Shown: in pieces, positions 1 through 3,000 of the stretch
How the letters are laid out: every line of letters starts with the position of its first letter
Numbering within the stretch: position 1 is the first letter of the stretch
NCBI GenBank assembly: GCA_039801885.1
Contig: JBDRVN010000041.1
Coordinates: forward strand, 1-16,173
DNA from: a candidate division WOR-3 bacterium
Lineage (GTDB): Bacteria; Hydrothermota; Tepidihabitantia; Tepidihabitantales; DTDR01
DNA length: 16,173 bases
Direction of reading: 5' to 3'
Made by a program: the position numbers

Positions 1-3000
1 GTCAACAATTAAAGAAGAGAATAAGAAAATCACCTATTTTGAAAAATATTATAATGAAATCTTTGATATAACCGGCAAAAAAATCAAACACCAAAAAATT
101 TCTTCCAAGGGTATCTATTTCTTAAAAGAAGAAAAGAGGATTAAAAAAATTGTAATTTATTAATTTCCCTTTGTTATTCTTTTTACCAAAAGAATTCTCA
201 AAATAGTAGTGAAGTTAGTAAGAAAGGCTAAAAGGATTATCGAAAGAAAAGACTGATTAAAGATGGAGAAAAGGAAGATTAAAAATAGTCTTATATCCCG
301 ACTTAAAGGAATTAAAGGATGAGAAATATCTTGAGAAAATAATAATCTTTCTTTATCCTTTAATATCATCGACATATTAGAACCGATAATTGCTAAAAAG
401 GCAAAGAAAAAAATCCAAATTTGATTAGTCTTTAAATAATGAGAAAAGGTAATTGCGGAAATAATTATTGTGTCGCTGTATCGGTCAAAAAGGGCATCTA
501 AGTAGGCACCAAATTTAGTTGTTGCCAATTTTATCCTTGCTATTTCGCCATCAACACCATCCAAAATAGAAACAAACTGAACTAATAAACCACCAAGGAT
601 ATTAGAAAAGAAAAAGATAAAAGAAGCAACAATTGTTAAGAGAAAATTGATAATAGTGATGGTTAAGGGCTTAATATTACACCAACAGAAAAATTTGGTA
701 AATAACTTAGAAATCCTGCGGTTAATTATCCTACTAATTATTCCATCTTCTTTTTTACCACAATTATTTAAAAGATAATTACTTACCCATTTTTTACTTT
801 CTTTATCATTCACATTAAAGACATATTCCTTTTTCTTAATAAAGAAAGTCTTTAACTTCTCTTTCTTTAAAAATTCTTTTATTAAATAACTAAGCTCTAT
901 TTCTTCTTCTAACAATTCTTTTTGGAAACTAAAGCCATTCTTTTCTAAAAAGAAAATTCCGCAATCTATCCCATCGAAATCTTCCAAATCCTTACCAATA
1001 TCAACAATAAAATTATCAACAATCTTTACTTTTGTCTCTTTTTCTAAATTATTTAATAGATTTAAGTTGTTATGAACTACCATTAATGGTGCTTCTTCTT
1101 TTAAAACCCTTTCAATAATTTCTGGTGAATAGATATGGTCAGCCATTAATAAAAGGAACTTCTCTTTTTCTTTAAGCAAATTAATTCCACAAAGGAAAGA
1201 AGCGCCATTACCTTTGTGATATTTCTCATTATAGACAAATTGGAAATTTATATCTTTAAATTTCTTTCTTAAATATTTTTCTATTAGCTCTCCTTTATAA
1301 CCAAGGACAACAATTATCTCTTTAATTCCAACTTTTATTAAAGGAATAATCACCCTCTCAATTAAAGAAAGTCCGAGCACCTTATGAAGAGGTTTTGGTA
1401 AAGAAGAGTTCATTCTTTCACCCTTCCCGGCTGCCAAAATAATCGCCTTCATCTTAATTTTTCTCTTTCATTAATTTTTATTTAAGAGGTCTAAAAAGAC
1501 CTCTTTCTTTCGCCTACGGAGTTAGTTGTCGGGTTAGGCCGAAAGAGTAGCCCGGCTTATCGCCTTCACCCCAAGTCTTCCAAAAAGAAGGCAAAATATC
1601 CTCCGCTCCGCATTATCTGAAAAAATGCGGATTCGGCATCGAAAGTCCATGTATAATAATATAGGTTTTTTAAATAAAAAAATCAAGGAAAAAGAATATT
1701 ACCATTTGTCGCTAAGTGAATGAAAAAAAGTGGTAACCTTTTGGGGTCTTTTTTCGTATTATATATAGAAGGAGAATAATATGATGGCAAATATGGTAAG
1801 ATTGATTAAAAAAATGATAAAAAACAAACTAAAAAAGGAGGTATTAAAGGAGTTATATCTTTCTCTTAAAAGTTAAATAATAAATTCCTTTCAATATCTT
1901 CTTATCTTTCCTTTAATTTAACAGGAGGATTTTACTTTCTATTAAGAAGGGAGCAGTATAGGAGATAGTATAGTTTATAATCTCTAAAGTATTAAATAAT
2001 TAAGAAGTAAACAAGTTTTCAATATAAATAATGACTTATAATTCTCTTTTAATATCCCTTTCTTTTCTAAAGAAATTAGAGAAAAAATAAAAGAATTTAA
2101 AATGGGGTTATTAAAAAGATGTTTACTGGTATATTGCCATTTGTTGACTTATCTCTTTTTTCTTTTATAATTTTTTATGTTTTTTACCTTGATTTTTTAT
2201 TTATTCTCCTCAACCGAGATTGGCTTATTATTAGGTGACCAGACCCCTTTTGGTAGATTAAAAAGATATTTCTATCCCACCCCTTCCTTTTCTTTAGAAT
2301 TATCAAAAGAAAGTAAATTTTCTGATTTTGGTTTATCTTTCACCTATTCCTGTTTTAAAAATCAATATTCTTCTCTCTATTTTCTGAAACCCCAGATTTT
2401 TTTTGAACCCTCTTTTTTAACAATTAAAAATAAAAAAGGGAAATTATTTTTCGCTCTTTCTTATCTTTATTTAATAAGAGAAGTCTATTGGGAAAAGAAA
2501 ACAAAAGAAAGCGGTAATTATTTTAATTACAATTTTGGTCTTGGTTATAAAGAGAAATTAAAGAAAATCAATTTTAAAATAAGAATTTTCCTTTCGCTTA
2601 TTCCGGAAAGACTGGAATTTGAAAAAGAAAGTAATTTTTATTATCTTTTAAATTCCCAAATTGGTGTTGGCTATGAATTTTAAAAAATCCCTTTTATTTT
2701 TATTTCTATTTATCTTTTGCCAAAAAGATAGTTTGTTAAACAGAACAACCGGTGATTATTTCCCCTTGGAAAAGGGAAAAACTTATTACTATTATTCAAC
2801 TTTAGAAGATACCATCCAATTTAAGTTTGTTGGCGATACCTTTCTCTTTGGCACTAATCTTTTTTATTGTGAAAGAAATATTGAACCGATATTTTTTATA
2901 AAAGAAAAGTTTTCTATTAAAAAATTTGTCTGTAAAGAGACATTAATTTTTGGCGAGATTGAGACCTTATACAAAGGTTTTATTAATTTTCTCTCTTTTC

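Follow-up and report, generated by a model that had tools for sequence, protein, structure and literature searches.

A c-di-AMP riboswitch as the predicted leader of a single-gene IPCT/DIPPS-type transcript in an uncultured WOR-3 bacterium

The genome of an uncultured WOR-3 hot-spring bacterium carries a c-di-AMP riboswitch aptamer directly upstream of a gene that fuses a cytidylyltransferase-like and a CDP-alcohol phosphotransferase-like domain. In the reading that we regard as probable, the riboswitch is the leader of a single-gene IPCT/DIPPS-type transcript, and high c-di-AMP would shut off synthesis of the protective solute di-myo-inositol phosphate (DIP). An earlier note had suggested c-di-AMP control of solute synthesis, and this suggestion is now supported by the aptamer, its exclusive linkage to the fused gene, the kinship of the gene product with the solved enzyme 4mnd, and a separate inositol-lipid route. 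The analysed window comprises 16,173 nucleotides of a genome of 1.56 Mb (70 contigs, 91% complete, 30.9% GC), and the conservation scan took in 66 genomes of the order.

Aptamer, promoter and host

The c-di-AMP (ydaO/yuaA) aptamer was located at positions 1496–1648 (minus strand) by a covariance-model match to RF00379 extending over model positions 1–134 of 134 (59.0 bits at a gathering score of 38, E = 9.9e-12). It was the sole copy in the 70 contigs searched, and the 59 bits, the threshold of 38 and the single copy given in the earlier note were thus reproduced. A sigma-70-like promoter was read from the sequence at positions 1658–1686 (minus strand), with the −35 box TTGATT at 1686–1681, a 17-nt spacer, and the −10 box TATATT at 1663–1658; transcription would start a few bases ahead of the aptamer. 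All eight related leaders have a −35 box of the TTGAC(A/T) or TTGATT type and a TA-rich −10 box at the same place. The aptamer is predicted to act in cis, as it lies in the 5′ leader, on the strand of the gene and behind promoter-like boxes.

The hairpin loop CUCUUUC (1541–1547, minus strand) and the aptamer tail GAAAGAG (1501–1507, minus strand) represent the 5′ and 3′ strands of a pseudoknot. They are complementary over 7 bp, with a duplex energy of −9.7 kcal/mol at 37 °C, and their positions match the loop–tail pairing in the crystallised ydaO construct, the sequence of which is printed in PMC5393176. Both segments are invariant in 9/9 aligned leaders, which leaves the pseudoknot without any covariation. 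Taken from the sequence, these features support an RNA that represents a full-length c-di-AMP aptamer with its pseudoknot complementarity intact, and binding of c-di-AMP is predicted on this basis. A cyclase for the ligand is encoded in the same genome by a CdaA-type gene (C66:2843–3604); its DAC domain lies at C66:3179–3529, where the earlier note had placed a cyclase, and a DAC cyclase is present in 62 of the 66 genomes. The leader resembles those of Bacillus subtilis kimA (ydaO) and ktrAB in the aptamer, the consensus helices, the loop–tail pseudoknot and a promoter of its own.

With regard to growth temperature, the organism looks thermophile-like: by Zeldovich's formula, the IVYWREL fraction of 0.437 gives a temperature of about 75 °C, and the tRNAs have a GC of 0.603 versus a genome GC of 30.9%. 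Reverse gyrase was not found in the genome (best match 305 bits at a cut-off of 471.7, covering the topoisomerase half of the model only), and the 16S GC of 0.556 is modest, which together point to a moderate thermophile at most. In family f1, 16S GC ranges from 0.556 to 0.591 beside flanks of 0.26–0.30; in family f2, four of the five genomes have 0.52–0.54 and the remaining one, G006, has 0.571. Hot-spring metagenome runs from two studies contain the stretch with shares of at least 0.27, and the top run may be the source sample. DIP itself is best known from hyperthermophiles, which weighs against the DIP reading for a moderate thermophile.

The fused gene and its inositol phosphate supply

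The open reading frame downstream of the aptamer (160–1452, minus strand) encodes 430 amino acids and starts 43 nt past the end of the Rfam match. Its N-terminal part (approximately residues 1–205; 838–1452, minus strand) was assigned to an IPCT-like cytidylyltransferase domain from NTP_transf_3 (67.7 bits, residues 3–119) and from solved relatives, its C-terminal part (approximately residues 240–430; 160–735, minus strand) to a DIPPS-like membrane CDP-alcohol phosphotransferase domain from CDP-OH_P_transf (41.3 bits, residues 262–382). Among solved proteins, the Archaeoglobus fulgidus IPCT/DIPPS 4mnd comes closest across the whole length, aligning to residues 1–413 (E = 1.1e-54). For the N-terminal domain, the best solved relatives are 4mnd and 2xme, the stand-alone CTP-inositol-1-phosphate cytidylyltransferase of A. 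fulgidus (E = 4e-26, residues 1–192). The motif D-x2-D-G-x2-A-R-x8-G-x3-D-x3-D, as worded in an excerpt of PMC9246714, is complete around residues 298–323, where the alignment places it opposite its counterpart in 4mnd.

The position just downstream of the riboswitch, both domains and an NF041135 score of 284.8 bits had already been noted, and all were obtained again. The NF041135 match covers residues 1–425 and is indeed below the equivalog cut-off of 580 bits, possibly because the model was built on and named for Thermococcales, so that distant bacterial members fall short. The next-best NCBIfam models were archaetidylinositol-phosphate synthase (83.2 bits) and PIP synthase (54.5 bits), two families that use inositol phosphate as acceptor. 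The fused gene product is most likely an IPCT/DIPPS-type enzyme (CTP:inositol-1-phosphate cytidylyltransferase / CDP-inositol:inositol-1-phosphate transferase; EC 2.7.7.74 / 2.7.8.34) of DIP-solute synthesis, from which we infer DIP as the product. It shares with 4mnd and the Thermococcales enzymes (NF041135) the order of the two domains, the 430-aa length, the complete motif and an alignment from end to end. Unlike the archaeal IPCT/DIPPS enzymes, it occurs in a bacterial, moderately thermophilic uncultured lineage, scores under the equivalog cut-off, is not encoded in an operon with inositol-phosphate synthase, has no IMPase-family partner that could be found, and is predicted to be riboswitch-regulated.

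Inositol phosphate would be provided by the inositol-3-phosphate synthase at C1:16843–17931, a previously reported location that was confirmed by Inos-1-P_synth (124.9 bits) and TIGR03450 (525.3 bits at a cut-off of 638). The synthase occurs in 66/66 genomes of the order. A stand-alone PIP-synthase-like gene (NF040950, 143.7 bits; NF045883, 102.8 bits) is also present in this genome and in 63 of the 66 (45 of the 45 good genomes). As these two genes are near-universal and the fused gene is found in 9/66 genomes, the latter is not needed for the universal use of inositol, which supports an accessory, solute-type use of inositol phosphate by the fused enzyme. In known cases, the phosphatase converting DIPP to DIP belongs to the IMPase family. 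A search for PF00459 (IMPase family) gave no match in this genome, which is 91% complete, but did so in 14/14 control genomes; the phosphatase of the last step may come from another family.

Linkage of riboswitch and fused gene

RF00379 was found in 8/66 genomes of the order, with one copy each. Seven of these eight carriers have the riboswitch directly before the fused gene, at a distance of 18–44 nt and with scores of 57.9–87.1 bits; in the eighth (G021), the contig stops at the aptamer. The nine genomes with the fused gene include the present one, and the two genes without a riboswitch are distant homologues of family f5 (34–38% identity). The earlier note had counted the riboswitch in 7 of 8 gene-bearing genomes and the gene in 8 of 41 genomes of the order. 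The seven pairings and their scores stood, with the denominator changing to nine (7/9), and the second count is replaced by 9/66. Among metagenome contigs with the aptamer core, 5/5 have the fused gene directly downstream. The pairing is kept in two families wherever the downstream DNA is visible, which bears out the earlier observation with seven genomes and five contigs. The riboswitch-linked genes (9/9) form one clade with a support of 100/99, which also includes three database proteins of unplaced context, one of them identical to the gene of genome G018. In G011, a member of the same genus, both riboswitch and gene are missing and the flanking genes are unchanged. The gene downstream of the fused gene in family f1 is a convergent ComEC gene; thus, the fused gene alone would be under control. 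A protein search of genome contigs returned only two close relatives.

Beyond the order, fused homologues are common: they were found in 55/272 genomes of the phylum and as at least 911 protein clusters (E ≤ 1e-20) among 7999 candidates scored, spread over many uncultured lineages. The riboswitch was absent from 20/20 further WOR-3 fused-gene loci examined, and RF00379 is rare in WOR-3 (10/151 genomes sampled). In WOR-3 family f39, it precedes KdpA, three AA_permease_2 (KimA-like) genes and a PBP_like_2 gene. These targets are a classic K+/osmotic regulon, so that the osmotic and K+ context of the ydaO class (kdpA, KimA-like) occurs in the same phylum.

Known c-di-AMP targets, as given in the portions of the literature available, comprise K+ uptake systems, the OpuC osmolyte transporter and cell-wall enzymes. 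Unlike in known RF00379 leaders, the target here is an inositol-phosphate biosynthetic enzyme and not a transporter or cell-wall hydrolase. A search for literature joining the c-di-AMP riboswitch and inositol found none, with early riboswitch gene-association tables outside its scope; one joining di-myo-inositol and c-di-AMP returned nothing relevant at the level of titles and abstracts. A third, on the c-di-AMP riboswitch and compatible solute biosynthesis, found no such link in the text portions retrieved, where the riboswitch occurred solely among the cited references and c-di-AMP was mentioned once, as a signal that might connect salt stress to K+ homeostasis. The general idea of ydaO riboswitches near osmoprotectant-synthesis genes is already contained in an excerpt of the review PMC7288161. 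What is new is the target gene for a known riboswitch class; the principle is not new.

Expression platform and mode of control

The aptamer is followed by a conserved hairpin at positions 1484–1505 (minus strand), with the 5′ arm AAGAGGUCU, the loop UUUU and the 3′ arm AGACCUCUU, and then by an A-rich linker to the start codon (1453–1483, minus strand), in which only a weak SD-like AAGAG was read. The hairpin occurs in each of the minimum free energy folds of the nine leaders, and its 6-bp core pairs in all nine. Two of its pairs change on both sides between families (U-A to C-G and C-G to A-U), a covariation that represents one split between two families. Its energy was calculated as −13.3 kcal/mol at 37 °C and −6.8 kcal/mol at 65 °C, and the energies of hairpin and pseudoknot are comparable at both temperatures. 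The pseudoknot tail GAAAGAG shares 5 nt with the 5′ arm of the hairpin in this leader, and 3 nt in those of family f4. We read the hairpin as an anti-pseudoknot element; in family f1, a second pseudoknot register could let hairpin and pseudoknot coexist.

As noted earlier, the hairpin has no clear U-run, and at 1484–1505 it is followed by an A-rich tract instead. A terminator scan of the window gave no site at the hairpin and canonical U-run sites elsewhere, e.g. at 15270–15241 (minus strand). An intrinsic terminator was rejected for lack of the U-run, and the output is probably not intrinsic termination. In family f4, the hairpin ends one base ahead of a free AGGAG, which is followed by the start codon. 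Elsewhere in the genome, SD motifs are in use: GGAGG occurs 142 times at −18 to −7 versus four times at −30 to −19 of 932 ORF starts. When folds with the tail free and sequestered were compared, accessibility of the ribosome-binding region shifted little and inconsistently. A simple conserved SD-sequestering helix was rejected, as there was no consistent change in accessibility and the purine-rich partner of the freed arm varies from one species to the next and shows no conservation. Two further elements were set aside: a 5-codon upstream ORF (1471–1454), which is not kept in G012, and a pairing of the P1 5′ strand with codons 5–9 in the minimum free energy folds, to which we assign no function, since other constraints account for the conservation of the two segments.

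In contrast to the terminator platforms of the ydaO class, the leader thus presents a hairpin that lacks a U-run and overlaps a pseudoknot strand. According to an excerpt of PMC9960051, the leaders of Corynebacterium glutamicum nlpC and Streptomyces coelicolor rpfA likewise have no canonical terminator past the aptamer, and for nlpC c-di-AMP is proposed to repress at the level of translation. There, unlike here, cell-wall peptidases and hydrolases of Actinobacteria are controlled, and the excerpt does not describe for nlpC or rpfA a conserved anti-pseudoknot hairpin such as the one present here.

In the mechanism that we propose, the fused enzyme would draw inositol phosphate from the universal synthase, activate it to CDP-inositol, and condense the latter with a second inositol phosphate to the phosphorylated precursor of di-myo-inositol phosphate, an anionic thermophile solute. 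With c-di-AMP bound, the aptamer would hold its 3′ tail GAAAGAG in the pseudoknot with the loop CUCUUUC; in the ligand-free RNA, the tail would pair with the downstream CCUC-containing pyrimidine arm, giving the conserved hairpin. The ligand would thereby release the CCUC arm for base-pairing with early codons or with the purine-rich ribosome-binding region; alternatively, it would reduce initiation or mRNA stability in some other way. High c-di-AMP, indicating ample K+ or turgor, would switch solute synthesis off. Control is probably of a non-terminator type and likely represents translational repression. The specific read-out, a three-way competition in which the aptamer loop and the anti-SD-like arm compete for the SD-like tail without a terminator, is put forward tentatively, at somewhat less than an even chance.

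The opposite sign of control is conceivable but unlikely: c-di-AMP would activate, with the ligand-free hairpin repressing through non-canonical termination, hindered ribosome loading or RNA processing, and the ligand-locked pseudoknot dissolving this hairpin. An organic solute would then replace K+-glutamate in response to high K+ and c-di-AMP. The negative charge of DIP, for which K+ is the required counter-ion, fits such activation. The overlap of the hairpin 5′ arm with the pseudoknot strand also speaks for it, as the ligand should weaken and not build the hairpin, whereas ligand binding to classic OFF switches of the ydaO class leads to formation of a terminator, according to an excerpt of PMC9960051. 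Against activation, a hairpin that lacks a U-run and in f4 leaves AGGAG free should alone neither terminate nor hide the SD sequence. Moreover, in the portions of PMC9960051 and PMC7288161 available, c-di-AMP riboswitches are described as OFF switches and osmolyte accumulation as generally lowered by c-di-AMP.

We consider it rather improbable that the fused enzyme makes a membrane-lipid head group by transferring inositol phosphate from CDP-inositol to diacylglycerol or ceramide in a Kennedy-type phosphatidylinositol route, the riboswitch tuning the envelope. In favour of this, the C-terminal domain is membrane-integral and kin of PIP and AIP synthases, the fused family occurs commonly outside obviously hot lineages, ydaO riboswitches of Actinobacteria act on cell-wall genes, and WOR-3 has Por_Secre_tail (T9SS-type sorting) domains, which are typical of Bacteroidota and relatives. 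For Bacteroidetes, a CDP-inositol lipid route has been proposed by Heaver et al. 2022 but is unconfirmed; as far as an excerpt of that paper (PMC9246714) goes, the putative pathway of Bacteroides vulgatus and Prevotella likewise combines an NTP transferase, a CDP-alcohol phosphatidyltransferase and inositol-phosphate synthase, from separate genes that lie together with the synthase gene and one for a HAD hydrolase, their function being unconfirmed. Here, by contrast, the domains are fused, the gene stands alone without an adjoining HAD hydrolase or synthase gene, and it coexists with the PIP-synthase-like gene, beside which a second lipid route in only nine genomes would be redundant. Furthermore, the nearest families of the C-terminal domain take inositol phosphate and not a lipid as acceptor, and 4mnd, the nearest solved full-length protein, is a solute enzyme. 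Least probable is an aptamer that is a relic or has changed its ligand, its pairing with the gene reflecting shared descent only. It would fit the restriction of the carriers to two related families, a single base change relative to the consensus (CAGCUAAC reading CAACUAAC) in 9/9 aligned leaders and three further metagenome leaders, and the fused gene of G019, which is split and interrupted by a stop in its second codon although the riboswitch before it still scores 76 bits. Scores of 58–87 bits, the retention of every helix and of the pseudoknot while the proteins diverged to 48% identity, the joint loss of riboswitch and gene in G011, and the wide occurrence of diadenylate cyclase argue against it.

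If c-di-AMP indeed represses the IPCT/DIPPS-type gene, a known osmotic signal would be tied to making a solute and not to importing it, and the K+ pool and its organic counter-ion would be adjusted together by a single signal. This would represent the first instance of c-di-AMP acting on the DIP pathway and the first known regulator of DIP synthesis in bacteria, providing a first handle on regulation of the pathway there. The leader offers a compact, testable ydaO expression platform that would work without a terminator. The linkage would also provide functional evidence on a family of enzymes found widely in uncultured phyla but not yet studied there, and the c-di-AMP regulon would extend to the signature solute of hot-environment microbes.

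The riboswitch and its pairing with the fused gene

Rfam matched only once in the whole window: the minus-strand stretch 1496-1648 is a c-di-AMP aptamer of the ydaO/yuaA class (RF00379), aligned over all 134 model positions at 59.0 bits (gathering score 38, E 9.9e-12). As stated in the earlier note, it is the only copy in the genome (1,555,453 bases on 70 contigs, 91% complete) and lies immediately before the fused gene, with 43 nt between the end of the match and the ATG start of the 430-aa ORF (160-1452, minus strand). A predicted promoter (-35 TTGATT 1686-1681, 17-nt spacer, -10 TATATT 1663-1658, minus strand) is located directly upstream of the aptamer, and each of the eight related leaders has comparable boxes in this position, suggesting that the aptamer begins a dedicated transcript. 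A five-codon upstream ORF (ATG AAA GAG AAA AAT TAA, 1471-1454, minus strand) stops one base short of the fused gene's ATG and is not conserved in G012.

Database proteins with 82% identity carry names that assign the organism to candidate division WOR-3. Eight of the 66 genomes of its order contained RF00379, each in a single copy: four from family f1, which includes this genome, and all four from family f4. The aptamer lies 18-44 nt before the fused gene in seven of them, whereas the contig of the eighth (G021) breaks off at the aptamer. Thus, the pairing in two families claimed earlier was recovered directly upstream in seven genomes of f1 and f4, whereas the number of genomes with the fused gene (E <= 1e-30) was nine and not eight (4/6 in f1 including this genome, 3/4 in f4, 2/44 in family f5). 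No riboswitch was present in the DNA examined around the two f5 homologues (34-38% identity). All five metagenome contigs with the aptamer core, some of which may represent the same species as the genomes, carry the fused gene directly downstream. In G011, a genome of the same genus (91% complete), the flanking genes are in place, but instead of the approximately 1.9 kb with riboswitch and gene there are 664 bp, which contain short remnants of intergenic sequence in inverted orientation (locus L107, G011:C5:26093-29596, about 2045-2708). Riboswitch and gene are gained or lost as a unit, a clean presence/absence polymorphism.

A maximum likelihood tree was calculated from 36 fused proteins, 24 from the loci and 12 from databases; it omits loci L013, L045, L048, L049 and L054, any gene that was broken or partial, and all other loci. 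All nine riboswitch-linked genes fell into one clade (support 100/99) together with three database proteins of unknown context, which is consistent with a single origin of the linkage. The next gene downstream differs, being a convergent ComEC homologue in f1 and variable in f4 (PdxJ, M16 peptidase), and the fused gene is therefore the only consistent target. In G019:C9 (L011, gene start at 1501, riboswitch 76 bits), the second codon of the fused gene is a stop (ATG TAA) and the gene is broken into two pieces, 9262-10086 and 10109-10561, which points either to a pseudogene or to faulty assembly. Two divergent ORFs of 168 and 200 aa at 2177-3263 on the plus strand of the window are conserved beside the locus in the genus, and neither had a Pfam match.

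The fused protein: solute or lipid

The fused protein comprises an NTP_transf_3 domain (residues 3-119) and a CDP-OH_P_transf domain (residues 262-382) with a complete D-x2-D-G-x2-A-R-x8-G-x3-D-x3-D motif. Its top NCBIfam model by far was NF041135, the bifunctional IPCT/DIPPS of Thermococcales (residues 1-425 aligned to 1-418 of 419), at 284.8 bits and hence, as noted earlier, under the equivalog cut-off of 580 bits. The top solved structure was the A. fulgidus IPCT/DIPPS 4mnd (E 1.1e-54, residues 1-413), and next came AF2299, which matched the C-terminal half, and 2xme, the stand-alone IPCT of A. fulgidus (E 4e-26, residues 1-192). For the C-terminal half, the runner-up models were archaetidylinositol-phosphate synthase and PIP synthase, two enzymes whose acceptor alcohol is inositol phosphate. 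Fusion to an IPCT-like half and these inositol phosphate-accepting relatives favour the formation of the phosphorylated precursor DIPP from CDP-inositol and inositol phosphate as the predicted reaction.

Alternatively, the fused gene might encode a lipid head-group enzyme of a CDP-inositol route, as put forward, though unconfirmed, for Bacteroidetes in PMC9246714. The order, however, already appears to have a route to inositol lipids. An inositol-3-phosphate synthase homologue (C1:16843-17928 in this genome) was found in 66/66 genomes at an unusually high identity of 76-98%, and a stand-alone PIP-synthase-like gene (C13:32394-32957; NF040950 143.7 bits, NF045883 102.8 bits) in 63/66, including all 45 good genomes (loci L024 and L004), so that inositol phospholipid synthesis is probably a universal trait. 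The fused gene (9/66) would therefore be an accessory consumer of inositol phosphate, which makes the lipid head-group role unlikely. Synthesis of the solute di-myo-inositol phosphate (DIP) has its own points against it: the NF041135 score lies below the cut-off, no IMPase-family gene (PF00459) was found in the genome, and proteins of the fused family are common in uncultured lineages that are not obviously hot.

The genome has a GC content of 30.9%; its IVYWREL fraction of 0.437 corresponds to about 75 °C in Zeldovich's formula, and GC averages 60.3% over its 45 tRNAs. The 16S GC is 0.556 here and 0.571-0.591 in the other f1 genomes, with flanks of 0.26-0.30, and 0.571 in one f4 genome; the low-GC families f2 and f3 lie at 0.52-0.54 except for G006 (0.571) and G017 (0.556), and the GC-rich f5 is uninformative. 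The window stretch occurred in three runs of one hot-springs metagenome study with shares of 0.72-0.96, of which the run with the highest share may be the source sample, and in one run of a second study (0.27). A search of the genome for reverse gyrase found none. We therefore regard the organism as a moderate thermophile. The window further contains a V/A-type ATPase operon (9710-14121, minus strand) and two proteins with Por_Secre_tail (T9SS-type C-terminal sorting) domains (5747-9544 and 15312-15869, minus strand), one of them a 1265-aa Kelch/CARDB protein.

The leader between aptamer and start codon

In the crystallised ydaO construct a hairpin loop pairs with the 3' tail (PMC5393176). The homologous strands, loop CUCUUUC (1547-1541) and tail GAAAGAG (1507-1501, both minus strand), are invariant in 9/9 leaders. 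Directly from the tail follows a hairpin (1505-1484, minus strand) with a 6-bp core in all nine; two base pairs of the hairpin differ in both arms between f1 and f4, modest compensatory evidence since this is one phylogenetic split. The hairpin shares 5 nt (f1) or 3 nt (f4) with the pseudoknot strand. The calculated energies at 37 °C are -9 to -13 kcal/mol for the hairpin and about -10 kcal/mol for the pseudoknot; at 65 °C they are -4 to -7 and -4 to -6 kcal/mol, respectively. Such similar values are what a competition tipped by the ligand would require; a second pseudoknot register in f1 could allow both elements to coexist.

The earlier remark that the hairpin lacks a U-run was borne out: in f4 it is immediately succeeded by AGGAG and the start codon, and in f1 by about 30 A-rich nt. 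Intrinsic termination was rejected because of this lack, the use of SD motifs in the genome and the canonical terminators present elsewhere. PMC9960051 describes ydaO switches of C. glutamicum that lack a terminator and probably act on translation. Ligand binding would here free the CCUC-containing 3' arm, which might then hamper initiation. Modelling of the freed arm (MFE folds, tail-free versus tail-sequestered states) gave no consistent partner and no consistent accessibility change, and we therefore infer the interference step and the sign of regulation only tentatively. In MFE folds of full leaders from several species, the aptamer P1 5' strand pairs with gene codons 5-9 (ILAAG motif; about 1425-1440 and 1630-1640, minus strand), a pairing that could reflect chance complementarity between segments conserved for other reasons.

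c-di-AMP riboswitches in the wider phylum

Fused homologues were present in 55 of 272 WOR-3 genomes; RF00379 was absent from all 20 further loci, although for a few of these the upstream DNA is only 200-300 nt long. The fused homologues at four loci of family f14 (L037, L040, L042, L050) have cobalamin riboswitches (RF00174, 60-70 bits) no more than about 1-2 kb away, which probably serve neighbouring genes. Ten of 151 sampled WOR-3 genomes contained RF00379, from f1, f4 and f39. Family f39 (G256-G258) has six copies (L055-L060), up to three per genome, followed by genes for KdpA (1), AA_permease_2 (3), PBP_like_2 (1) and a 451-aa ORF (L059, 1). AA_permease_2 is the family of KimA. In WOR-3 the class thus also guards the classic K+ regulon, in support of an osmotic meaning of the signal. 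Two of the f39 riboswitches (L055, L060) have a small CDP-alcohol phosphatidyltransferase gene immediately upstream.

The review PMC7288161 places ydaO riboswitches close to genes for the 'synthesis and transport of osmoprotectants'. No paper joining a c-di-AMP riboswitch to inositol or DIP turned up in full-text searches, and an earlier listing in primary gene tables is possible. The association of RF00379 with the fused gene is real and well conserved, and it gives a known riboswitch class a new target gene, for which DIP as the product and the proposed sign and mechanism of control are plausible.
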